The translations under genes were made by a program, and so were the position numbers. This document shows positions 13,064 to 27,214 of a stretch of 32,000 bases of DNA, in pieces. The notes below the pieces were generated by a model, which was given only the letters and a program-made list of their open reading frames with translations, was not told the origin of the DNA and did not search any database. The DNA comes from Halomicronema hongdechloris C2206 (GTDB lineage Bacteria > Cyanobacteriota > Cyanobacteriia > Phormidesmidales > Phormidesmidaceae). Where the stretch lies: assembly GCF_002075285.3 (NCBI RefSeq), contig NZ_CP021983.2, forward strand, positions 3,870,001 to 3,902,000, read 5' to 3'. Positions within the stretch are counted from its first letter, which is position 1, and the number at the start of each line of letters is the position of its first letter.

Positions 13064-14166
13064 TCCGCTACTCCCCAAAACTCCAAGAGCGCTTGGGCTC
13101 GCTCGGCCCCCTCATCATTTCCCTGGGCTCGATATAAATCTTGAGCCTGGCGTACCTGGGAAGCCGCCTGCCCCCGAGCCCCCTGCCCCCATAGGGCCAA
13201 CCCCAGATTGTAATGGGCCCCCGGATTCTCAGGCAGGGCTGCCACCAGGCGACGATAGGACAGTACGGCTTGCAGGTATTCCTGCCGCTCCAGCAGCATC
13301 TTCCCCAGAGCCGCATGGGCCGGAATTAAGTCGGGATCAAACTCAACTGCCCGCCGATAATGGCTCAGCGCTGCTTCACGATTCCCCTGTTGCTCTAGCA
13401 ACTCCCCCATGCGAAATTGAGCCACGGCATTATTGGGATCGACTTCCACGGCCCGGCGCACATGGTTTAGCACCTGTTGCTCATCGCCCAGATGGTCGTA
13501 AACATCCGCCAAACTCAGGTAAACAATACTGTTATTAGGGGCAAGACGCTGGGCTTGCTGCAAGAATCTCAGGGCTTCCTCGAAGTTTTCTTGCTTAATG
13601 TGCAGGGTGCCTAATGCTTCGTAGACTTTGACGTTGCCGGGGGCGATGTCAGCCAACTGCTCATATACCGTCGTCGCTTCCCGATAGTTCTCCATCTCCA
13701 ATAACACACCGCCCAACCCCAAATAGGCATTCACCTCATTGGGGGCCATCTCGATCATCTCCCGGTAAACATCCGCTGCCGCCTGGTAGCGTTCGGCTTC
13801 GAACAAGCTGTGAGCCAACGCATAGCGAAAGGGGCGATTATCCGGAGCCAGATCGATGGCCTGACGGTAGGCTTGGGCTGCTGCCTCGAAGTTGCCCTGC
13901 TGCAGCTGCAGATAACCAATGCCAGAGAAAATACGGGCATTTTCCCGATCGATGCGGGCCGCCTGCTGATAGTAGTCGATGGCCCGGGCATAGTCTTGCG
14001 CCTCCACCCGTTCTTGACCCTGGCGCAGTAGCTCATCCACCTGTTCCTGCTGGGCCTCACTGAGGGAGGCTGTCTGCCCTTGGGCCAAATAGTCTGCAGT
14101 CACTATCCTGGCCGTTACCCCAGAGACGGTCTCGGTTAGCTCTCGGGCCTCGACCCCCGGAGGCAA
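13060..14166 (-). CDS. Tetratricopeptide (TPR) repeat protein
   Basis: The 368-aa ORF has about nine 34-aa TPR units ('A..Y..AI.L.P.N..AY..LG'). The only in-frame start is a TTG at 14166 or a later GTG. The stop overlaps the miaB stop, since the genes are convergent. Confidence 0.8.
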
Positions 14167-14313
14167 GCCCTAGGGTTAAGCCCAAGACACTCACGGCAAC
14201 TGCGTGGTGAAGATGGTGAGTCACGATGGAACCTCCGGGTGCGGTCGAGATAGGAAGGCTGACGCAGGCGATAGTGCTTTAGCTTCCTATTGTTAAGTTA
14301 TGTGTTAACGATT

Positions 14314-15234
14314 CTACCAATAACTGTTCGTTGCCATCAGTAGCCAGACGCCTCGCTGCGTCTGATGACCCCCTAGTTCAGCATTTATTGGCAAAGAGGG
14401 CGGGTAGCGCTCGGGACACACCCGCTGGGGTTGATAAATCTCAGCCTGCCAGCCATAGGCGGCCAATAGCGGCCGGGGATCGTCACAGCCCCAGCGCCAA
14501 TGGCGAATCACCCGCCCCCGATCCTGGTGTCGAGCTCGGCCAGCTGCGGCCAGCGATCCCAGGGTGACTTCATCCAGGCCCAGCTGGCTCTCAGGGGCAC
14601 TCAGGTCTGATATGGCCTGTAATACCGCCTGCAGAGAGGACTCTGGCAGGTACATGGCTACCCCTTCCAGCAGCCATAGGGTAGGTCGCTCCCGCTGGTA
14701 CCCTGCTCGTATCAGCGAGGTGATCCAGTGGCTGGCGGATTCCTCCAGATCGGCATCAATCAGGTGGTGGTCACAGGCGGGCGGCACCGGCCGCAGCATG
14801 GCAGTCTTGTAATTCAGCACCAGGGCATGATCTACCTCATAGAGCTGAGTACCAGCGGGCCAGGTGAGTCGCTAGGCCCTGGTATCGAGACCCGCCCCCA
14901 GAATCACCACCTGGGGAGTACGGCCCTGATGGCAGCTAGCCTGCAGCCAGGCATCAAAGAAATAGGTGCGGATAGCCACATAGCGAGTTCGCTTGCGGAT
15001 AACCTCTGACAGGGGCCGTTGTTGTCGCTGGGCAGTGGCTTGCCATTGAGTCAGCAGGGCGTCGACCTCATGGCCGGCCAGACAAGTGGCATAGGGATCC
15101 TGAAATAGAGCAGGCTGGTGGGTTTGCTCAAAGATGCGCTTAGCCGCCACAATGCGAGCGGTGTAGGGAACGGGAGTGTGCGGCAGTAGGGACACAGCAG
15201 AGCAACGAAGTGTCAAATCAATAGAGGGGGACAC
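14314..15234 (-). pseudogene. SAM-dependent (Leu carboxyl/O-methyltransferase-like) methyltransferase interrupted by one in-frame TAG
   Basis: Track ORFs 14872..15234 and 14314..14820 share a frame. Read through, the junction gives '[34 protein letters not shown]'. The TAG at 14872-14874 sits where this family has Tyr ('[11 protein letters not shown]'). Confidence 0.75.
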
Positions 15235-15438: not shown

Positions 15439-15894
15439 ATGTCCGCCAGCGAACGCCTGCAGTTGATTCAAACCTTGAACCAACTGCCTGCCAGTCAATT
15501 TGAGGAACTCGTCATCGCCCTCAATCCGCCCGCGGGGATCTTGCCGCCTAATGTCGCTGCCCAAGGGCCGCGCCTCAGAGCTACTACACTGGGCCGAGGG
15601 ACCGACGGACCCCAATTGCCCCAATTGCAAGCCATTTTGCAGCAGCTGTTGCCGGCTGATCAGTCGTTTCTAGATGGCGACAATCCGACCCGGCGTCGAT
15701 GCCGTCCACCGGGCAGCTGTCTGTCTCAAGCGACGCTTTTACGAGCGCCAAAAGCTCAGTTAGAGGCGGCCCTGGCGGCGGTTGAGGCAGATTTAGAGAC
15801 GGCACCGCGGCAAGTCGATCGCCTGCGTCTGGAAAAGGAGGCTGAACAGCTGTTGGACAAGATAGAGGCGCTGGATAATACCCTCAATGGCTAG
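15439..15894 (+). CDS. Small adaptor-like protein: N-terminal helical module (effector-associated-domain-like) plus C-terminal coiled coil
   Basis: The N-terminal 'ERLQLIQTLNQLPASQFEELVIALNPPAGILPPNVAAQG' parallels the C-terminus of the TIR protein (24589-24810). The C-terminal 'QLEAALAAVEADLETAPRQVDRLRLEKEAEQLLDKIEALD' parallels the N-terminus of the next gene. It contains an out-of-frame stretch (see findings). Confidence 0.6.
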   Translation: MSASERLQLIQTLNQLPASQFEELVIALNPPAGILPPNVAAQGPRLRATTLGRGTDGPQLPQLQAILQQLLPADQSFLDGDNPTRRRCRPPGSCLSQATLLRAPKAQLEAALAAVEADLETAPRQVDRLRLEKEAEQLLDKIEALDNTLNG

Positions 15895-15966: not shown

Positions 15967-16998
15967 GTGGTAGATCAGAAACAGCGACGACGAGACTTCT
16001 ACACTAAACAGCTGGCCCAGCTAGAGGAAGAACTGGCTGCGGTGGAGTCTGATCTGGAGACGGCGGCTGGGGAGCGGGAGCGATTACGGCTGACGAAAGC
16101 CGCTGAGAGACTACTGGATCAGATCGATGAGCTAGAGGATAAGTTAGCTGCCTGTGATGCTGAGGCATCGGAGCCGGGGATACGCGATCGCAACTTCGAG
16201 AAGGCCCTGCAAAAAATCAACTTCACCCAAGCCAAAGACACCGCCGCCCGCCTCCGCCAGAAGCTTAACCAGCAGGGGGGAGTCGCGCTATTCTTCCTGC
16301 AGGGCAGCAAGCTGCAGATGGGCCACTTCTGCCTAGAAGAGGTGTTGCAGGTGATCTTGAGAGATCACATGATCGATGGTCAGGTGGTCGGAGCCTACCG
16401 CCGCATCTGCGTAGATCTCAACTCCACCATCTCCCAACTCAATGAAACCGAGTTTTTGATGCGGCTGGCCAGCTATTTCAATCTCGACCTAGCTGCCTCG
16501 TCAGACGACAACCTTTTATGCGAACAGATTCACGCCCAGATTCGCACCTCCATTGGCACTGGCACTACCCTTTTTCTAGAGATCAAGAGTCTAGATGAGC
16601 TGCTGGAGCGAGAAACGTTCCTAAAATGGTTTATCCAAGATTTCTGGCAGCCCCTGAGCGAGGAGGTTGCCGTGGCCTCCCAAGACGTCAAGAGCAAATT
16701 CATCGTGGCCCTGATCGCCGACAGCCAAATCCTATCCGACCATACCTCCCCCCAGTATCCCCAAGACGTTTTCTGCCAGGGAGACCGCCTCGACAGCGAC
16801 AAGATCATCAACCTGCCCCTACCCAACTGGTCCGTTGACGACATTCAGACCTGGCTAGTCCGATTTCACCCCCTGTTGCCAAAGCTGCAGCAACAGCAAA
16901 AGACCGCCCTAACCCGAATGGCCAAGCAGATCCACAGAAACAGCGGCAACGGCATTCCCCAGAGCGTGTGCATTAACCTCCAGGAGCTATTTCAATGA
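15967..16998 (+). CDS. Coiled coil plus STAND-like domain with a degenerate P-loop (iSTAND-like); function unknown
   Basis: The 343-aa ORF starts at a GTG directly after a TAA. Its N-terminal coiled coil, 'QLAQLEEELAAVESDLETAAGERERLRLTKAAERLLDQIDELEDKL', is followed by 'GGVALFFLQGSKLQMGHFCLEEVL'. That sits where NTPases have GxxxxGK[ST], but there is no Lys-Ser/Thr. The stop overlaps the MoxR ATG (ATGA at 16995-16998). Confidence 0.6.
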   Translation: MVDQKQRRRDFYTKQLAQLEEELAAVESDLETAAGERERLRLTKAAERLLDQIDELEDKLAACDAEASEPGIRDRNFEKALQKINFTQAKDTAARLRQKLNQQGGVALFFLQGSKLQMGHFCLEEVLQVILRDHMIDGQVVGAYRRICVDLNSTISQLNETEFLMRLASYFNLDLAASSDDNLLCEQIHAQIRTSIGTGTTLFLEIKSLDELLERETFLKWFIQDFWQPLSEEVAVASQDVKSKFIVALIADSQILSDHTSPQYPQDVFCQGDRLDSDKIINLPLPNWSVDDIQTWLVRFHPLLPKLQQQQKTALTRMAKQIHRNSGNGIPQSVCINLQELFQ

Positions 16999-17975
16999 CT
17001 GCAGCCGAGCGCCTGACATTCCACGGGGATGGACGTGCCCCCACCGCTCCCCATCCGGACTCTCCAGAGGTACCGGAACCCTATCTGGTGTCTCAGCCCC
17101 TGCAGAAAGCCGTCAATCTGGCCATCTTCCTGAGACGCCCCCTCTTGCTGGAAGGAGATGCCGGCTGTGGCAAGACCCGTCTGGCCTACAGCGTGGCCTA
17201 CGAACTGGGGCTGCCCCTCTACCGCTGGGACGTGCGCTCTAGTACCAAGGCCCAGGATGGGCTGTATGAGTACGACGCGATTCTGCGGCTCCACGATGTG
17301 GAAGTGCAGAAAGTCCAGGGCGCCCACCCTGCCACCCTTGATAACCCCCCAGACGAGGACGCGATCTCCCCGGAGCGTCGCCACCCCGGCAATCCCAAAC
17401 ACTATCGCCGGTTCGGCCCCTTGGGCAACGCCTTTCGCCTGCGAGATCGCCCCGCTGTCGTCTTGATTGACGAGATCGACAAGGCCGATCTGGACTTTCC
17501 CAACGATTTGCTGACGGTGTTAGATGACCCCTGGCAATTCACCATCCGCGAGACTGGCGAAACCATTACGGCTCACCCAGAGCACAAGCCCATCGTCATC
17601 ATCACCAGCAATAAGGAGAAGGGCAACCTACCGGCCCCCTTTCTGCGGCGCTGCCTATATCGGTATCTAGACTTTCCCGATAGCCCCGAACAACTGCAGG
17701 AAATCGTGCGGCGCCACTATCAACATCGCCAGCAGACGACCCCGGCAGACCCGTTGGTGACGGCCGCCGCCGATAAATTTCTCAGTCAGCGGCGGCAGCG
17801 CAACTGGTTTAAGCCCCCCGGCACCAGTGAATTTCTAGATTGGCTAAAAGCCTTGCACCAATTTGAGGCCAAGCCCTATAGCGTGGCCCAACTGCAGCAG
17901 GATACAATTTTGCCCTATCGAGAAGTGCTGTTTAAGCGCCAAGATGATTGGCGTAACTCGACCCAGGCATCATGA
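16995..17975 (+). CDS. MoxR-like AAA+ ATPase
   Basis: It has Walker A 'GDAGCGKT' (17154-17177), Walker B 'VVLIDEIDKAD', sensor-1 'IVIITSN' and 'PAPFLRRC'. The size of 326 aa and the downstream vWA partner are typical of MoxR. Confidence 0.88.
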   Translation: MTAAERLTFHGDGRAPTAPHPDSPEVPEPYLVSQPLQKAVNLAIFLRRPLLLEGDAGCGKTRLAYSVAYELGLPLYRWDVRSSTKAQDGLYEYDAILRLHDVEVQKVQGAHPATLDNPPDEDAISPERRHPGNPKHYRRFGPLGNAFRLRDRPAVVLIDEIDKADLDFPNDLLTVLDDPWQFTIRETGETITAHPEHKPIVIITSNKEKGNLPAPFLRRCLYRYLDFPDSPEQLQEIVRRHYQHRQQTTPADPLVTAAADKFLSQRRQRNWFKPPGTSEFLDWLKALHQFEAKPYSVAQLQQDTILPYREVLFKRQDDWRNSTQAS

Positions 17976-19072
17976 CCGCATTCGATCCCCAAGCGCTGGT
18001 GTTGCGTACCTTTCTGCAGTTGCGTCGCAGCAATTTCAAGCTGGGGGTGGCAGACTACATGGCCGCCCTGGACGCCGTTGCCGGCGGCTTCGGTGAGGAT
18101 TTAGCCAGCCTGGAAGACACCCTGAAGCTGTTGTGGTGCCACTCGTTGAGTGAGCACAGCCAGTTCCAGCCCATCTGGCAGTCAGTGCACCGTCAAGTCA
18201 AGGCCAACCGCCAACCCAAGCCCCCCTTCCCCGGAGGACGCGAGGCCCCCTCCCGACCCCAAGAGACGGTCCCAGCCAGGCACCAGGCGTCAGAGCCACC
18301 GATGCTCCAACCGCAACCGCCGCCGCCCCCGCCCCGGCGAGCCGCCCTAGGCTCCCTGCCGGTGCAGGCCCCCAGCTTACTCAGCGGCGAAGAAGACACC
18401 ATACCCCTGCAGGCCTACTATCCGATTTCACGGCGGTCCATGGTGTATAACTGGCGCTATCTGCGCCGCCCGGTGGCCGATGGCCCTCAGGATGTGTTGG
18501 ATATCGATGCCACCATCCAGCAAGTGACCCGCCAGGGATTCTATCTGGCCCCCGTCTATGGCCGGCGAGAACGCAATCAGGCCCGATTGCTGTTATTCAT
18601 CGATCACGATGGCTCCATGACGCCGTTTCACCAGTTCACCGGGGACCTGGTGGAGACCGCCCAGCAAGAGAGCCCCCTGGATGCCGAGAACGTCAACGCC
18701 GTCTATTTTCAGAATGTGCCGGCGGGGACTGTCTTTCGCGATGTCTACTTGACCCAATCGATGCCCTTGGCCGCCGCCCTGGGTAGCTGTGACCCCACCA
18801 CCAGCGTGCTCATCGTCAGCGACGGTGGCGCCGCCCGGGGCTATCGTCTGCGAGACCGGGTGCGGAGCACCAGCCGATTTCTGCTGCAGCTGAAACGCCA
18901 TACCAGCCTGGTGGCCTGGCTCAACCCCATGCCAAGGCGGCGCTGGGTGGGAAGCTCCGCCGAAATCATCGCCCACTCAGTCCCCATGTTTCAGATGGAT
19001 AGCGACGGACTCAATAACGCCATTGATGTGGTGCGGGGGCAGCCCCTGAAGCACACCTACTCGGCATCTTGA
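17972..19072 (+). CDS. vWA (von Willebrand factor A, CoxE-like) domain protein
   Basis: Its ATG overlaps the MoxR stop (ATGA). After a helical N-terminus and a Pro-rich linker comes 'LLLFIDHDGSMTPF' (MIDAS-like DxDGS, 18602-18619), then '...VLIVSDGGA'. It has the usual position 3' of MoxR. Confidence 0.8.
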   Translation: MTAFDPQALVLRTFLQLRRSNFKLGVADYMAALDAVAGGFGEDLASLEDTLKLLWCHSLSEHSQFQPIWQSVHRQVKANRQPKPPFPGGREAPSRPQETVPARHQASEPPMLQPQPPPPPPRRAALGSLPVQAPSLLSGEEDTIPLQAYYPISRRSMVYNWRYLRRPVADGPQDVLDIDATIQQVTRQGFYLAPVYGRRERNQARLLLFIDHDGSMTPFHQFTGDLVETAQQESPLDAENVNAVYFQNVPAGTVFRDVYLTQSMPLAAALGSCDPTTSVLIVSDGGAARGYRLRDRVRSTSRFLLQLKRHTSLVAWLNPMPRRRWVGSSAEIIAHSVPMFQMDSDGLNNAIDVVRGQPLKHTYSAS

Positions 19073-20709
19073 CCATGGCCGCCGCCCCCTCCCCATGGCC
19101 GGAACCCGCCGACAGGGTGGACCAGTTTGTGGCTCGCTTTGGCAATGAGGCCTATCGCTCCCTGGCCTACCATGCCGCCTTGCCCCTGGTGCTGACGCCG
19201 GAACTGGTGCATTACCTGCGGATTCAATGTTTGCGAGCAGACCATGTGCCCTGGGAAGCCGAGGTGGATCTGCTGCTGTCTGACCTCTGCCGCCAGGTGG
19301 GCTATGAGCTTTACACCATGGATACCCAAGTGCGGGCATACCTGCTGGCCGAAATTAAAGACGACCCGGTCTGGCAACATCGCCTGCAGGAAGTGGCCCA
19401 GGTATTGATCAGCTATGTCAGCTATTTGAGCCGCGTCGATCCCCAGCGTCGCCCAAGAGAGCTAGAGGCGCAACGACTGGCCGCCATGACCTACCTGGGA
19501 GATGAGCACTGCCAGGCAGCCGTGCAAGACATCGGCCATCGCTTCCAGCACTTGGCAGATCAGGCCAGGGCGGAGGGAGCATCAGACCAGAGCATCCGGG
19601 CGGAGCTGGCCTATCTGAGCCGTATCACTCAGGAACTGGCCCCCCAACTGACACGGCACCCAGAGCTGGTGGAGCTGGCCCAGCTGGTGCAACGACTACT
19701 GCGCCACCCAGAGGCGGTGACCCCCGCCGACAGGGCGCGCACATTTCGGGTGGGAGACGCTGACATCCGCCCCAGTGTCTTTCCCTTGAGATTCTCCTCT
19801 GGGGAAGACGAAACCACCCCGACGGGGATGCCCCCTTTAAGGACGCTGGAGTTTGAGACAGGCCAGTTCGTTCAGCCAGAGGCGGGGGTACCTGCCTTAG
19901 AGGCGCAAACGGTGGAGGTGGTGACCCTGGAGTTTGAGGAGGCCAATACAGATTCAGGCCCTATCTCAGGAGAGCCAACATTAGTTTTGGGAGTGTATGG
20001 ATGGGATAAAGTAAGCGAGACCAAGACACCAAATGTGGAGTTAGACTGGCAAGAATACTGCGATCGTACTACCCGCCAAGTTCCAACTCCAGATACGTGG
20101 GATAGCATTCTATTTCCGCAGTTGCAGCAAGCAAAACAAACTCTGATTCAGATATCCTCCTCCCGATACATTTACCTCTTGGGAAATTGCCCCCTCACCA
20201 TGAGTCTGGCCATTGGTTTTACATTTCCTTACGTGGCTGGATATAAGTTTCGTTTGAAGCAATTCACTGGCGGGGAAATGGCCTTTTGGGAGTCTTCTGC
20301 CTCCCCCTCTGAAGCCCAACTTGAGGTCATTCAAGAACAGGGCACAGGAGGAAGCAACCTTATCTTTGCCATTGGGATCAGCGTAAGCATATGGAAGGAT
20401 GTGCAGCAGTTTCAGGAGAGGAATCAAGACCAATTCAATGCTTTAGTGTATGCTGAGCCAAAACAAGGGACAGGACAACGAACTTTAAAATCTGATAAAG
20501 ATGCTGTGGCATTGGCACTTCATGCCAAGGAGCTGATGCATCTATGTCGTCAAAAATATGAAGCGGAAAGCATTCATCTTATTTTTGCTTGCCCAGCAGC
20601 CTTCTCCTTATTCCTAGGGCAGCGACTCAACGCCTTGGGATTGATTATGGCTTATGAACGAACTCAGGATGGCAGCTATCAAATCTCGGTAATACTGAGA
20701 ACAGGCTAA
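19069..20709 (+). CDS. vWA-MoxR-associated protein: helical N-terminal domain plus C-terminal SAVED-like (tandem CARF-like) domain
   Basis: The start is a TTG at 19069 overlapping the vWA stop, or an ATG at 19075. The N-terminus reads 'FVARFGNEAYRSLAYHAALPLVLTPELVHYLRIQCL...PWEAEVDLLLSDLCRQVGYELYTMD'. From about aa 302 (19972) there are two alpha/beta halves, each with a 'hhhhG.CP...SLhhG' element: 'IYLLGNCPLTMSLAIGFTF' and 'IHLIFACPAAFSLFLGQRLN'. The C-terminal 'YER...GSY' resembles SAVED domains. This is by-eye assignment only. Confidence 0.6.
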   Translation: MTMAAAPSPWPEPADRVDQFVARFGNEAYRSLAYHAALPLVLTPELVHYLRIQCLRADHVPWEAEVDLLLSDLCRQVGYELYTMDTQVRAYLLAEIKDDPVWQHRLQEVAQVLISYVSYLSRVDPQRRPRELEAQRLAAMTYLGDEHCQAAVQDIGHRFQHLADQARAEGASDQSIRAELAYLSRITQELAPQLTRHPELVELAQLVQRLLRHPEAVTPADRARTFRVGDADIRPSVFPLRFSSGEDETTPTGMPPLRTLEFETGQFVQPEAGVPALEAQTVEVVTLEFEEANTDSGPISGEPTLVLGVYGWDKVSETKTPNVELDWQEYCDRTTRQVPTPDTWDSILFPQLQQAKQTLIQISSSRYIYLLGNCPLTMSLAIGFTFPYVAGYKFRLKQFTGGEMAFWESSASPSEAQLEVIQEQGTGGSNLIFAIGISVSIWKDVQQFQERNQDQFNALVYAEPKQGTGQRTLKSDKDAVALALHAKELMHLCRQKYEAESIHLIFACPAAFSLFLGQRLNALGLIMAYERTQDGSYQISVILRTG

Positions 20710-21188: not shown

Positions 21189-22439
21189 CTACGGACAGAT
21201 ACGATTCAGGGCAGCCAGGGCGGCTTGCAAAAACCGACGCTCCCAGCGGTAAGAATTCACCTCGTCCTGGGCCCAGTCGTGGCCGTCCTGCCACTGGGCT
21301 TCGAAGGCTGCTACTTCAGCGGGGAAGGTAGCCCGCAGGGTATCTAGCCGATTGGGGACTCCTGCCAGCCGCTTCCACTCGCGGAAGAAAGCTGATCCTT
21401 GAGCCCGCGCGATGTCATTCGTATGGCGAGCATGCATGGTCTCATGGACGAAGGTAGCTTTGTCATCGATGCGCTGGCAGGGATCAGCCGATGGCGGTGG
21501 TAGCGTAATTGTGCCACTGGCACTGGTGGAGCCAGCTACGGTAGTACCGGGATGGGCAGCATCGAAGCAGGCTTCAACATCAACGTTGGTCGGATTGGCC
21601 GGAACGTCACAGGCGGCATAGGTCGCCGCTGCAGTATTGGCCCAATTAATTCCATCCCGCACCTGCTGGCGGCATCCACACATACTGTGTGTGACGGGTA
21701 GTCCCCAGACTCTCTCGCTAGTAGGCGGCGATGGGGACTGTCGTTGGATTCTATGGCTGGATCCCTGGGCTGCCGGTTCAATCCTGTGGTCTCCATGCCT
21801 GGCAAGAGCACCACCTTGCTGCACAACATGGGCCAATTCATGGGCCATCAAAAAACGGGCACGTCCACTTCCTGAAGATAATCGGTCGTTATCCAAGACA
21901 ACGTGCTGGCCCACTGTATACCCCTGCGCATTGATCGCTTGTGCTGACTCTGCCGCTTTCGCATCCGTGTGCACTCGCACTTGGCTGAAATCATGCCCAA
22001 AACGTGGCTCCATAAAGCTGCGGGTGTGGGCATCCAGGGGCTGGCCGGGTGAGCGCAATACTTCGTGGACGATGGGCAGTGCTGAAATCTGTTCCTCGTT
22101 GTTCGACTGAAGGCGCCGCAGTTGTAGGCGCATTGGTTTCTGCTCCGGTCGCTGTGCCTGACACTGGGGACAGCCACCACCACAGGCACAGGTGCGCTGC
22201 AGCTTGGGATCAGGCATGCGAATCACTTGGTTCGCAACACGATCTGCCTCCTGTTCATAGATGTCTCCAGGCTGGTCGATCGTGAGTTTCGTCTGTAGTG
22301 CTCCTGGATGTGGACGATGACACTGCGGGGGCAACTCATGCCGCTGGATCCGACTGGATATCGTAGGCTTGATCGCAGGCTTGGCAGATGTAATCTGCTG
22401 AGTTGCCCTTGATTTCTGTGCAAAAGTACCCATGGCCAA
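21189..22439 (-). CDS. DUF4157 (eCIS-core-type, zincin-like) domain protein with an unknown Cys-containing C-terminal domain that carries a second HExxH
   Basis: 'DIYEQEADRVANQV', 'LQRTCACGGGCPQC' and 'VHEVLRSPGQPLDAHTRSFMEPRFGHDFSQVRVHTDAKAAESAQAINAQGYTVGQHVVL...LMAHELAHVVQQ' form the canonical DUF4157 signature, with HELAH at 21828-21842. A second 'HETMH' lies at 21432-21446. Confidence 0.85.
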   Translation of the reverse strand: MAMGTFAQKSRATQQITSAKPAIKPTISSRIQRHELPPQCHRPHPGALQTKLTIDQPGDIYEQEADRVANQVIRMPDPKLQRTCACGGGCPQCQAQRPEQKPMRLQLRRLQSNNEEQISALPIVHEVLRSPGQPLDAHTRSFMEPRFGHDFSQVRVHTDAKAAESAQAINAQGYTVGQHVVLDNDRLSSGSGRARFLMAHELAHVVQQGGALARHGDHRIEPAAQGSSHRIQRQSPSPPTSERVWGLPVTHSMCGCRQQVRDGINWANTAAATYAACDVPANPTNVDVEACFDAAHPGTTVAGSTSASGTITLPPPSADPCQRIDDKATFVHETMHARHTNDIARAQGSAFFREWKRLAGVPNRLDTLRATFPAEVAAFEAQWQDGHDWAQDEVNSYRWERRFLQAALAALNRICP

Positions 22440-23079: not shown

Positions 23080-23579
23080 GTGGTAGAGCTGATACTCCGT
23101 AAAGAGCGTAAACGAGCTCGCTATTTTACCGAATCCCTGGGCGATCAGATTGGCCTGGATATGATATTGGTACCCGGCGGCACGTTCCTGATGGGTTCGC
23201 CAGAGGATGAGCCTGAGCGGATTGACCGCGAGGGACCACAGCATCAGGTGACGGTGCCTGCTTTTTTCATGGGGCGATATCCGGTGACCCAGGCTCAGTG
23301 GTAGGCAGTGGCCGCACTGCCTCAGGAATCGCGGCAACTAACTCCAAATCCTTCTAGGTTCAAGGGAGACAGTCGCCCGGTTGAGCAAGTCTCCTGGTAC
23401 GACGCAGTGGAGTTTTGCGATCGCATCAGCCGTCATACTGGTCGCGCCTATCGGCTACCCAGCAAAGCCGAGTGGGAATATGCCTGTCGAGCCGGCACAG
23501 CCGCTCTGCCTATCGCTACAGCGATGATCCCCATGGAGCCTTCAATGATATTGGGTTTCGGGTGGTGTGTGTTGCCTGA
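23080..23579 (+). pseudogene. FGE-sulfatase (formylglycine-generating-enzyme-like) domain gene with an in-frame TAG and an internal deletion or frameshift
   Basis: 'LDMILVPGGTFLMGSPEDEPERIDREGPQHQVTVPAFFMGRYPVTQAQW' is followed by a TAG at 23302-23304. It continues in frame as '[51 protein letters not shown]'. From about 23502 the family tail '[25 protein letters not shown]' is in another frame, so the middle of the domain is missing. Confidence 0.75.
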
Positions 23580-23769
23580 AGTGCGATCGCAACATTCTCG
23601 GCTTGGCGGCAGACATGAGCACTCCTCTCTGGTTTCTAGCCAACCATTGCCAAGGGCCTGAGCATAACTGAGCGAAGGTGCGATCGCACCATTGCTGAAA
23701 ACCCACCAGCAGTATGGCACCCCCCTTAGCAGCTGAGTAAGATGGGGACAACATCCCCCCACCGCTGCC

Positions 23770-24813
23770 GTGAAAGACTTTTTCATCAGTTACAACAGCG
23801 CCGATAAAGCCTGGGCTGAGTGGCTTGCCTGGGTGTTAGAGGAAAACGGATATACAGTAATCATTCAAGCCTGGGACTTTCGCCCTGGCGGCAACTTCAT
23901 TATCGACATGCAGCGAGCGGCAGACGAGTCGACGCGCACCATCATGGTGCTCTCCGAGGTCTATCTGCAAGCCAAGTACACCCAGCCGGAGTGGGCTGCG
24001 GCATTCAAACAAGATCCTGAATCCCAGGAACATAGGCTGATTCCTATCCGAGTTGCACCCTGTCAGCCGACCGGAATGTTGGCACCGCTGGTCTATGTGG
24101 ACTTAGTTGGCAAAAGCGAAGCCGATGCCGAAGCATCCGTGCTGGCCTCCTTGCAAAACCGAGCTAAGCCAGCGACGCGCCCCAGCTTTCCTGGAAAGAC
24201 TCCGGGTGAGGAGCGAGTTGTCAAGAAAAAAGTTCCATTCCCGCCTGGAAGGTCAATTCGAGTGACTTGGCAACTTGTGCTTGACTATCAGCTTGAGAAT
24301 ACCTTTTTTGATCACGGTCGTGATATTGACAGGGTGGTTGATCGGTTGAAGCAACTCTCTGGAGATCAGCGCCTAGAGGATGTGGATAGAGTGTGCAAAA
24401 ACGGCAGCACCTTCCTGACGCTTAAAGGAACAGAGGAGGGGCTGAGGAAGCTTCAAGCACTTTCTGAAACAGGACAGTTGGCTGAGATAAACGGAATACA
24501 AGTCGAACAAATCAACTTACCGCCTGACTCCTCTCAAACACCGCCGATAACGCAGAATCCTCCAATGACGAATGAATCGACGACGCTGACACCGCGAGAG
24601 CGCTTAGCCTTGAATCGTAAGATTACCGGGCTTACGACTCAGTCGTTTAACGAGTTGTTGCTACTGCTTGAACCGCCTGATGGAATAGTGCCGCCACCAA
24701 CTGCACCTCAGGGCGATCGTACCTATGCCTTGCTGAGTTGGGCGCGAAGTACCACCGGCTGTGGCCTGGCCGCCGTGCGCGATGCCTTCAACGAGATTGC
24801 CCCTTCCCCTTAG
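23770..24813 (+). CDS. TIR domain protein with a central unknown module and a C-terminal helical adaptor (effector-associated-domain-like) module
   Basis: After a GTG start, 'KDFFISYNSADKAWAEWLAWVLEENGYTVIIQAWDFRPGGNFIIDMQRAADESTRTIMVLSEVYLQAKYTQPEWAAAF...LIPIRV' is a bacterial TIR_2-type domain. The C-terminal 74 aa (24589-24810) match the N-terminus of the 15439 gene. Confidence 0.85.
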   Translation: MKDFFISYNSADKAWAEWLAWVLEENGYTVIIQAWDFRPGGNFIIDMQRAADESTRTIMVLSEVYLQAKYTQPEWAAAFKQDPESQEHRLIPIRVAPCQPTGMLAPLVYVDLVGKSEADAEASVLASLQNRAKPATRPSFPGKTPGEERVVKKKVPFPPGRSIRVTWQLVLDYQLENTFFDHGRDIDRVVDRLKQLSGDQRLEDVDRVCKNGSTFLTLKGTEEGLRKLQALSETGQLAEINGIQVEQINLPPDSSQTPPITQNPPMTNESTTLTPRERLALNRKITGLTTQSFNELLLLLEPPDGIVPPPTAPQGDRTYALLSWARSTTGCGLAAVRDAFNEIAPSP

Positions 24814-24860
24814 CTGCCTCTTCGGATTCGGATGGCACTGCCCCGGAGAGGCCTTGGCTG

Positions 24861-27214
24861 GTGCCCCTAGACCGCAACCCCTGTTTTACTGGACGAGCGT
24901 CGATACTGGAGCAGATACGTCAGGCGCTCACCGCTAGAGGCACCGCCGGATTAACCCAGGTGCAGGCCATTGCCGGCCTCGGAGGTGTCGGCAAGACCCA
25001 AACCGCTCTGGAATATGCCTATCGCTACTACTGGGATGTAAACAGGGACGAGGCCTATCAGGCGGTCTTCTGGATTCGGTTAGATACAGAGCAAGCGCTT
25101 CAGAGTGGCTTTCAAGAGATCGCTGAAATGCTGATGCTCTGTGAGGCAGCGGTGAAAGAGGCGGACCAGATCGTGCGGGTGGTCAAGACCTGGTTAGCAG
25201 AGCACACAGGCTGGCTGCTGGTGCTAGACAATGCCGATGACCCCAGTTTTATCAGGAATTATCTGCCCAAGCGGGGACAGGGTCATGTGCTGATTACCTC
25301 CCGGGTGCAAGACCTGCAACGCCTGGGGGTGATTCAACCGCTATCGCTGGATGCCCTGAACCCTGAGGAGGCGGTGGCCTTTTTGCTGCAGCGGACAGGC
25401 CGCGAGGCTGCTAGCCAAGCAGCCCAGAGGGCAGCTGAGGCACTATCGGCGGAACTGGGCCATTGCCGTTGGCCCTGGAACAGGCTGGTGCTTACATGGT
25501 CACCACAGGTGCTGGCTTTCAAGACTATCTCGCCAGCTATCGGCATCGCCGTTTGGACCTGCTGAACCAAGCCGCCCCCATCATGGGCGACTATCCCGAT
25601 TCCGTAGCCACTACCTGGAATATCAACGTTGAAGCGATAGCAGCGGAATCTCTGGCAGCTACCGATCTCCTACGGGCCAGTGCCTTTCTCCATGCCGACG
25701 GCATTCCCTACGACCTGATCGTGTCGGGAGCCAGGGAGTTAGGGGAGGCGATTCAGCAGCACCTGGCAGAGGTTGAGAATGACCCCCTGGCCTTTTTGAC
25801 CCTGCTGGAACCCTTGAAGCGATATTCCCTGGTGCGCCCCGAAGCGTCGGAGCAGACCTACAGCGTTCACCGTCTGGTACAGGCTGTGGTGAAGACCAAC
25901 CTGGGGGAAGCGGCTGCCAGACAATGGGCGGAGCGGATCGTGCGGGTGGTGACCCAGGCTTACCCCAATGCCGATGACTTCAACAACTGGCCGGAATGCC
26001 AGCGATTGCTCCTCCACGCCCAGGCGGCAGCAACCGCCGTCCAACACTACCGTTTTGACTTTTCCGAAGCCGGCCTGCTGCTGATTCGGCTGGGATTTTA
26101 TGCCCAAGAGAGAGGGGAATACTCAACCGCTGACCCCCTTTACCTGCAGGGATTAGAGATATATAAAAAAGCCTTGGGCGATGAGCATCCCCATGTGGCC
26201 CTCAGCCTCAACAATCTCGCCTTTCTGTATAAATCGCAGGGCCGCTACGCCGAGGCGGAACCGCTCTATCAGCAGGCCCTGGCCTTGTGGCAACGGCTAT
26301 TGGGCGACGAGCATCCCGATGTGGCCAGCAGCCTCAACAATCTCGCCGCACTGTATGACTCGCAGGGCCGCTACGCCGAGGCGGAACCGCTCTATCAGCA
26401 GGCCCTGGCGTTGCGGCAACGGCTGTTGGGCCAGGAGCATCCCGCTGTGGCCCTCAGCCTCAACAATCTCGCCGCACTGTATCGAGTGCAGGGCCGCTAC
26501 GGGGAGGCGGAACCGCTCTTGCAGCAGGCCCTGGCCTTGCGGCAACGGCTGCTGGGCGACGAGCATCCCGATGTGGCCCTCAGCCTCAACAATCTCGCCT
26601 TACTGTATTATGCGAAGGGCCGCTACGCTGAGGCGGAACCGCTCTATCAGCAGGCCCTGGCGTTGGGTCAACGGCTGTTGGGCCAGGAGCATCCCGCTGT
26701 GGCCCTCAGCCTCAACAATCTCGCCGCACTGTATTATTCGCAGGGGCGCTACGCCGAGGCGGAACCGCTCTATCAGCAGGCCCTGGCGTTGAGGAAACGG
26801 CTATTGGGCGACGAGCATCCCGCTGTGGCCCTCAGCCTCAACAATCTCGCCGCACTGTATCAATCGCAGGGTCGCTACGCCGAGGCGGAACCGCTCTTGC
26901 AACAGGCTTTCCAGATTAGCCGAAACGCTTTAGGAGACAATCATCCCGACGTGGGCATTTGCTTGGGTAATTTAGCCTCCCTGTACGTTGCCCAAGGGCG
27001 TTATTCTGACGCGGAACCGTTGTTTCTAGAGGCGTTGAGCCTCTTTGTGCAGGCTGTAGGGCAAGACCATCCCTACACCACAGAGACGATTAATCGCCTT
27101 GCTAAGTTTGTCAGGACGGTTATTGAAGCAGGCCAGACTCAGCTCCTCTCTGACCATCCCGTCACCCAAGCCCTGCTCCAGCAGCTGCAGTCCCCGTCAG
27201 CCAAGGGCTCGTGA
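24861..27214 (+). pseudogene. NB-ARC (STAND) NTPase with kinesin-light-chain-type TPR array, split by a 1-nt frameshift
   Basis: Frame A reads 'NPCFTGR...IAGLGGVGKTQTALEYA' (Walker A), 'LLVLDNADD' (Walker B) and 'VLITSR', up to 'ALSAELGH'. Frame B continues from 25463 with 'LPLALEQAGAY' and eight 42-aa TPRs. The junction 'GGC CAT TG' (25458-25465) would read G-H-L-P-L-A-L-E with one more T. The start is uncertain: a GTG at 24861, or further upstream where frame A is open from 24738 and overlaps the TIR gene. Confidence 0.8.
26084..27091 (+). repeat. Eight tandem 126-nt units encoding 42-aa TPR_10/12-type repeats, the central ones nearly identical at the DNA level
   Basis: 'NNLAALY.SQGRYAEAEPLYQQALALRQRLLG.EHP.VALSL' recurs every 42 aa. 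Long identical nucleotide runs such as 'ggccgctacgccgaggcggaaccgctctatcagcaggccctggc' occur in several units. Confidence 0.9.

Follow-up and report, generated by a model that had tools for sequence, protein, structure and literature searches.

Introduction

Does a small helical module carried by two genes of one cyanobacterial defence island connect a TIR protein to a MoxR-vWA operon encoded upstream of it? The question is raised by a stretch of 32,000 nucleotides (nt) from Halomicronema hongdechloris C2206 (contig NZ_CP021983.2, positions 3,870,001 to 3,902,000), hereafter the window, in whose own coordinates all positions are given. A first-pass annotation, made from the sequence alone, had noticed that the C-terminal end of the TIR protein encoded by the open reading frame (ORF) 23770-24813 (+) resembles the N-terminal start of the product of ORF 15439-15894 (gene 15439), which heads the operon. 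It had proposed that both segments are one adaptor that pairs homotypically, wiring the TIR protein to the MoxR-vWA system, or else that a TIR-made signal is read by a SAVED-like domain. Here, we report that the shared segment is a genuine domain, and probably a homotypic adaptor of the effector-associated domain (EAD) class.

EADs have been defined as small non-catalytic terminal domains found on effectors or signalling enzymes and on core components (PMC7159879, PMC8195603). Ternary iSTAND systems have been described, with EAD9 said mainly to recruit signalling components (PMC7159879), and the reported TRADD-N architectures include STAND+TRADD-N+EAD7 and TIR+TRADD-N+NACHT, together with TRADD-N genes next to AP-ATPase-TPR genes and TRADD-N+APATPase+TPR fusions (PMC8195603). 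The adaptor concept used below is this published EAD principle and is not new; modestly new are a family of the EAD class that apparently has no name, two-adaptor bridges that recur, and an effector-swapping cassette formed by the module and an NB-ARC-TPR gene.

Homology of the two module copies

The segment at the C-terminus of the TIR protein (copy 1) and that at the N-terminus of the gene 15439 product (copy 2) align in BLASTP at E=1e-10, with 40% identity over 58 amino acids (aa), and at E=2e-13 once copy 2 has been frame-corrected. A hidden Markov model (HMM) of the family, run against the six-frame translation of the window, matched exactly two copies, with domain E values of 7e-32 for copy 1 and 7e-22 for copy 2, and detected no further copy below E ~2. 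Copy 1 was itself recovered in the family profile search as P0004 (E=1e-40); here and below, P numbers denote protein representatives from that search and L numbers the loci compared. Both pairwise and profile comparisons thus sustain the claim of a common helical module. The two copies lie 9 kb apart within one island, and the true start of copy 1, 24583, is six bases 5' of the position 24589 first given. In copy 1, four helices are accompanied by the conserved PPxGxxPP loop and by the motifs QGDR...ALLxWA...GCGL.

The frame correction that had been postulated for gene 15439 was borne out by a DNA alignment with its intact ortholog in L001, which shows the window gene to be short of 2 nt at ~15567/15568 and of 1 nt at 15606/15607. 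Because of these two deletions, the annotated gene 15439 protein carries 13 scrambled codons instead of helix 3. The +1 frame between them reads RASELLHWAEGPT, a fragment that on its own matches positions 48-61 of the family HMM, and the Trp that is invariant in the family (W56) falls in helix 3. In the intact L001 ortholog, the site of the first deletion lies within a HIP1 site (GCGATCGC), and the window is without that site.

A widespread family of four-helix modules

The module is ~74 aa long and was predicted by AlphaFold2 as a compact four-helix domain (mean predicted local distance difference test score, pLDDT, 92.3), with helices at residues 7-18, 22-32, 46-58 and 65-75 and the PPxGxxPP loop between the second and the third. 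Pfam/NCBIfam scans, a PDB profile search and Foldseek returned no match of the module to a catalytic family, and no enzymatic features were found in it. An exhaustive profile search yielded at least 655 representative proteins at E<=1e-3, 348 of them at E<=1e-10. Of the best 150 of the 655 representatives, 80 have the module at the N-terminus, 38 at the C-terminus and 27 internally, and a few carry three to seven tandem copies: P0002 (residues 918-1340) combines five tandem modules with two TIR domains and an nSTAND NTPase, and P0003 (residues 206-809) has seven, so that either may act as a multivalent scaffold.

Fusion partners, counted over 146 module proteins, were TIR_2 (40), pentapeptide repeats (11), EAD1 (11), TRADD-N (9), EAD9 (7), CHAT (6), NB-ARC (6), trypsin (4) and NACHT (4), and further partners included PNPase, a kinase plus CHAT, WD40, nSTAND and VMAP-C core components. 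The last are represented by a TIR+module+VMAP-C protein (P0122) and by a module+VMAP-C gene adjoining a MoxR gene (L006). Other architectures are module+NB-ARC, module+(STAND)+WD40, module+PNPase, two modules+kinase+CHAT, EAD1+TIR+module, module+TRADD-N+pentapeptide, TCAD3-CHAT-module-EAD9 and trypsin-module. Proteins with two adaptors and no enzyme recur as well, as module+EAD9 in P0012, P0039 and window gene 15439, and as EAD1+module in P0016, P0021, P0117 and P0126.

Chance similarity, or a proline-rich low-complexity linker, is ruled out as the source of the resemblance by the pairwise E=1e-10, by the 348 representatives at E<=1e-10 and by the confidently predicted fold, which together leave it a negligible probability. 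The one point in favour of a linker is that the PPxGxxPP stretch is rich in proline; the conserved positions, occupied by Trp, Arg, Gly and Leu, are not part of this stretch, and the fusion partners are confined to conflict-system domains.

Scans of the window proteins, of 49 diverse members and of the family consensus left the module without any Pfam-A or NCBIfam match, and no Pfam EAD model matched it at E<=10 in the two window modules, 49 members and two consensus sequences; all EAD1, EAD2 and EAD9 matches within module proteins fall outside the module. NCBI labels module-only proteins "hypothetical". The supplements of Kaur et al., searched by module motifs and by TIR+TRADD-N+X architectures, contained no named equivalent, the 2020 alignments lying outside this search. 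As far as these sequence searches reach, the family is widespread, mostly cyanobacterial and without a Pfam or NCBIfam name.

Two candidate relationships were considered. That the module is a divergent EAD1 was rejected, since hhalign gave only 18% probability over 20 columns, at the helix-3 "LLxWAE" motif, and since one protein can hold EAD1 and the module as two distinct domains; more distantly, the two families may be related. A Death fold (CARD, DD or PYD) was not recovered, with no significant Foldseek match against the PDB and nothing relevant in the PDB profile search. The best Death-fold matches were the NLRP1 CARD and the p75NTR DD (template modelling scores, TM, 0.53 and 0.54; E>2, probability <=0.33), and since CARD, PYD and DD structures reached TM ~0.5 at E>2 we claim no Death-fold homology.

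The likeness to EAD1-EAD11 (Kaur, Burroughs, Iyer & Aravind, eLife 2020, 2021) is extensive. As in those families, the module is small, helical, non-catalytic and terminal; its copies are found on VMAP core components and at the head of an iSTAND operon, and also on TIR, caspase-like, trypsin, PNPase and STAND proteins; related copies occur in adjacent genes, EAD1 and EAD9 co-occur with it, it is concentrated in cyanobacteria, and homotypic coupling is predicted for it. Unlike them, it is matched by no Pfam EAD model, and the authors' unpublished alignments may name it otherwise. By analogy, it would also resemble the animal Death-fold adaptors (CARD, DD, PYD, DED), which are small helical homotypic modules with two-domain bridges such as FADD and MyD88, and the module-NB-ARC-WD40 arrangement of P0048 and P0089 recalls the CARD-NB-ARC-WD40 of Apaf-1; the module differs from the Death-fold adaptors in having four predicted helices and not six. 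Provided that it acts as a homotypic adaptor, the module enlarges the EAD/Death-like repertoire by a large, unannotated family of hundreds of protein clusters.

Module copies in adjacent genes

From the relatedness of its members, the family clearly forms apparent cognate pairs. Module copies in the adjacent genes of L012-L015 have 64-67% identity, and the partner takes 3rd place among 161 family members; neighbouring copies are therefore closer to each other than to the family at large. One metagenome-assembled genome with two module copies (L005, L006) has them 44% identical. In L012 (10001-11844) and L014 (10001-11831), a small module-only protein is followed by a protein of the module+TRADD-N(+pentapeptide) type. 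A mobile element is suggested at L012 by the AcrVA2-like, TnpC_reg and DNA methyltransferase genes of that region.

Gene 15439 as a probable bridge to the iSTAND core

In the window, gene 15439 opens a five-gene operon continued by EAD9-iSTAND, MoxR, vWA and X-SAVED genes, the last four of which overlap (Table 1). The first-pass annotation had taken gene 15439 for a core component; we find instead a two-adaptor bridge, made of the module and an EAD9 that matches the EAD9 of the iSTAND protein. The two EAD9 copies share 61% identity over 44 aa (E=6e-14), and on this similarity they are a classic adjacent-gene EAD pair. The link of the module to iSTAND in the window is consequently indirect, through the EAD9-bearing bridge.

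The combination of iSTAND, MoxR AAA+ and vWA genes in one operon is present in the window and, in the same order, in L001, L004 and L005. L001 repeats the window arrangement (module-EAD9, EAD9-iSTAND, MoxR, vWA), with the gene 15439 ortholog P0039 at the head of the operon. In L004 a TIR-module-EAD9 protein is encoded upstream of EAD9-iSTAND and MoxR, and in L005 a CHAT-module-EAD9 protein upstream of iSTAND, MoxR, vWA and X-FGS (FGS, FGE-sulfatase). Since TIR- or CHAT-module-EAD9 genes stand directly upstream in these two loci, enzyme, module and iSTAND operon are evolutionarily linked, and the fusions provide what may be called Rosetta-stone support for a link between enzyme and operon. The bridges of the window and of L001 are missing the enzyme, and therefore a module-bearing enzyme acting in trans would be expected; the only candidate for it within the window is the TIR-TRADD-N-module protein.

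The fifth gene of the operon follows a pattern of its own. The N-terminal ~290 aa of the SAVED protein (domain X, 19069-19950) have no Pfam match, and share 42% identity (E=1e-54) with the N-terminal part of the X-FGS protein that L005 encodes at the same operon position (13544-14480). Because X is common to the SAVED and FGS proteins, the fifth gene can be described as a constant domain X with a swappable C-terminal domain.

Compared with the published iSTAND-MoxR-vWA ternary system (PMC7159879), the window likewise has EAD9-iSTAND, MoxR and a CoxE-type vWA in overlapping genes, and its relatives likewise link a signalling enzyme (TIR or CHAT) to iSTAND via EAD9. It differs in that its vWA protein (366 aa) is without a C-terminal effector domain, in that SAVED (in L005, FGS) sits on a separate fifth protein with domain X, and in that the EAD9-bearing upstream protein has no enzyme and carries the additional module. 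In scans of genome contigs, the iSTAND protein as query gave no loci, and a second scan gave three.

The TIR gene and its NB-ARC-TPR neighbour

Between its TIR domain and its module, the TIR protein has a TRADD-N-like region at residues 185-248 (nt 24322-24513). The match to PF20694 (20.3 bits, E=5e-4) lies below the cutoff of 23.7, and is supported transitively by BLASTP (E=7e-8) against the above-threshold TRADD-N of P0101 (37 bits). In the TIR domain the candidate catalytic Glu is E74, a residue kept without exception by 11 related TIR domains.

The closest relatives of copy 1 are found in P0005 (unknown N-terminal domain+TRADD-N+module), P0007 (trypsin+module) and P0013 (TIR+module). All four loci with a C-terminal module of this TIR sub-lineage (window, L002, L003 and L010) have the same two-gene cassette, with an NB-ARC ortholog beginning VP..RN..FTGR after 44-48 nt and with an N-terminal domain that is swapped among loci, being TIR, trypsin or the unknown domain. 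P0005 and the window protein are 49% identical over TRADD-N plus module, and their N-termini differ. No copy of the module was found by HMM in the NB-ARC-TPR/STAND proteins of the cassette. As judged from gene order and similarity, the module/NB-ARC-TPR cassette with apparent effector swapping is conserved. It resembles the published TRADD-N/AP-ATPase-TPR neighbourhoods (PMC8195603) in joining an effector (TIR), TRADD-N and an adaptor to an NB-ARC-TPR gene immediately downstream, and departs from them in that the C-terminal adaptor is the unnamed module and the TRADD-N match is sub-threshold.

The spacer of the cassette can form a stem-loop of ~10 bp (GCCTCTTCGG...CCGGAGAGGC) in the four loci (window 24816-24852; L002 1221-1257; L003 10957-10993; L010 ~1032-1068), and a GGAG motif resembling a Shine-Dalgarno sequence overlaps its 3' arm. 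All four loci conserve the stem, and no compensatory changes were seen in it.

Proposed mechanism and alternative explanations

The best explanation overall, which we consider probable, is that an EAD-class module, a bridge and recruitment of a TIR protein in trans belong together. The gene 15439 product would dock on the iSTAND core by EAD9-EAD9 pairing, and its free module would recruit a module-bearing enzyme in trans by homotypic contact, the TIR-TRADD-N-module protein being the candidate. When the iSTAND/MoxR/vWA system fires, the TIR domain might, speculatively, turn NAD+ into a signal or deplete it, and the SAVED domain of the fifth gene could conceivably be the reader of the product. 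Such TIR-to-SAVED signalling is compatible with the operon because its fifth gene is X-SAVED; that SAVED reads a TIR product stays speculative, as it was when first suggested.

Several observations weigh against this explanation. Over the domain, the window copies share 35% identity, less than the 40-41% median of the family; they rank 139th-145th of 160 for each other and belong to different sub-lineages. At 35% identity against 64-67% in adjacent pairs, they lack the cognate-pair signature, and the greater closeness of neighbouring copies seen in L012-L015 does not hold for them. Downstream of each of the closest relatives of copy 1 (P0005, P0007 and P0013) an NB-ARC(-TPR) ortholog begins 44-48 nt further on, and no iSTAND operon is in view there, which gives the TIR protein another obvious partner. 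In addition, copy 2 as it stands in gene 15439 is without helix 3 and the invariant Trp, and the damage extends to a frameshifted NB-ARC-TPR gene and a remnant FGS effector gene. SAVED domains, for their part, are known as readers of CD-NTase and cyclic oligoadenylate products, and are not known to read TIR products. Of the proposed wiring of TIR to MoxR-vWA, the part concerning the lineage is supported by the fused TIR- and CHAT-module-EAD9 proteins upstream of the operon in L004 and L005; the part concerning this protein is called into question by the 35% identity and by its own NB-ARC partner. Specific recruitment of the TIR protein to the iSTAND system through an intact ancestral gene 15439 is accordingly doubtful in our judgement, if possible on the sequences.

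The same evidence lends itself to two independent systems, in which the TIR-TRADD-N-module protein is the swappable effector of the adjacent NB-ARC-TPR protein, its similarity to gene 15439 is that of any two family members, and proximity reflects the clustering of defence genes. Coupling of the C-terminal module to NB-ARC-TPR would then be heterotypic, or mediated by a partner that carries the module and is encoded at another site in the genome, and the cassette would represent the published effector+TRADD-N+STAND+TPR architecture in split form. The invariable NB-ARC ortholog in four of four loci, the swapping of the N-terminal domain, the conservation of TRADD-N plus module between the window protein and P0005, the conserved spacer hairpin and the low identity of the window modules all agree with it, as do the TRADD-N genes adjoining AP-ATPase-TPR genes and the fused TIR+TRADD-N+NACHT and TRADD-N+APATPase+TPR proteins (Kaur 2021). 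Nevertheless, there is no homotypic partner inside the cassette, because its NB-ARC-TPR proteins have no module copy; elsewhere the family pairs with itself in adjacent genes, the enzyme-less module-EAD9 bridges imply partners in trans, and in L004 TIR is fused directly to module-EAD9. We regard two independent systems as a tentative possibility, short of probable.

A combination of both, in which cyanobacterial immune islands run a relay of interchangeable adaptors, two-adaptor bridges act like FADD or MyD88, one TIR-TRADD-N enzyme is shared by the NB-ARC-TPR and iSTAND-MoxR-vWA sensors, and SAVED reads the product, is rather unlikely; it would amount to a bacterial signalling hub for several sensors, resting on a hitherto unnamed adaptor family. 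Animal Death-fold signalling is known to be held back by truncated adaptors, and by analogy with CARD-only and PYD-only proteins the enzyme-less module-EAD9 protein could be a decoy or brake, occupying the iSTAND EAD9 site or the modules of effectors. The orthologous positions in L004 and L005 hold fused TIR or CHAT, which makes the window and L001 proteins look like enzyme-loss versions and suits a decoy; however, enzyme-less two-EAD proteins recur in many lineages, which fits bridging equally, and we consider a decoy very improbable.

For recruitment in trans through a bridge, as for the EAD principle at large, binding assays would find test cases in the tight pairs of L012-L015, in the two-adaptor bridges, and in the fused (L004, L005) versus split (window) arrangements.

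The defence island and its probable decay

The features of the island are collected in Table 1. For the source genome the analysis mainly amounts to annotation, of an apparently decaying defence island that follows published rules.

Table 1. Coordinates of the module copies and of the genes of the island within the window.
Feature	Position (nt)	Strand	Length	Evidence and remarks
LCM-type methyltransferase gene	14314-15234	-		In-frame stop within conserved LGAGLDTRA*RL motif
Bridge adaptor gene (15439)	15439-15894	+	151 aa	Module residues 1-72 (nt 15439-15654, damaged), linker, EAD9 residues 106-150 (nt 15754-15888), E=1.5e-4
Module copy 2	15439-15660			Damaged
Scrambled stretch in copy 2	15568-15606	+	13 codons	Out of frame; replaces helix 3, D-RASELLHWAEGPT-G
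EAD9-iSTAND protein	15967-16998	+	343 aa	EAD9 residues 5-61 (E=1.1e-8, 35.1 bits against a cutoff of 25); iSTAND residues 82-250 (PF19995, E=4.8e-26); core component of ternary system
MoxR-type AAA+ ATPase	16995-17975	+	326 aa	AAA_5, AAA; MadB-like AAA 1e-23; 4-nt overlap with iSTAND stop codon
vWA protein, CoxE type	17972-19072	+	366 aa	VWA_CoxE 2.3e-9; overlaps both neighbours
X-SAVED protein	19069-20709	+	546 aa	Domain X residues ~14-292; SAVED residues 353-539 (3.8e-20; NCBIfam 4e-31)
eCIS_core (DUF4157) protein	21189-22439	-	416 aa	Weak metallopeptidase-like match; between iSTAND operon and TIR cassette
FGS (FGE-sulfatase) remnant	~23086-23588, possibly from ~22440	+		In-frame stop, frameshift, ~100-aa deletion relative to L005/L006 FGS
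TIR-TRADD-N-module gene	23770-24813	+	347 aa	TIR_2 residues 4-119 (nt 23779-24126), E=2e-34; module residues 272-345
Module copy 1	24583-24810	+		TIR protein residues 272-347
NB-ARC-TPR STAND NTPase	24861-27214	+		Likely GTG start at 24861; 1-nt deletion ~25463-25466

The NB-ARC-TPR gene is split into the overlapping ORFs 24738-25565 and 25463-27214. The break, a change of CATTTG to CATTG, was mapped by tblastn with the L003 ortholog, which follows frame 3 to 25466 and frame 2 from 25463. iSTAND systems use the FGS domain, represented in the island by a remnant, more often than any other effector. The LCM gene, which lies just before the defence operon, appears to have been turned into a pseudogene by a point mutation.

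The indels might be sequencing or assembly errors, which we consider less likely than real decay of the island, because further lesions accompany them (the stop and ~100-aa deletion in FGS, the nonsense codon in LCM) and the housekeeping genes of the window are intact. That the TIR-to-iSTAND link is functional in the sequenced genome is, in our estimation, quite improbable.

A cyanobacterial origin is indicated by the HIP1 palindrome GCGATCGC, which has 13 sites in the window (e.g., 16184, 23417, 23583 and 23680) against 0.63 expected, an excess of ~20-fold.

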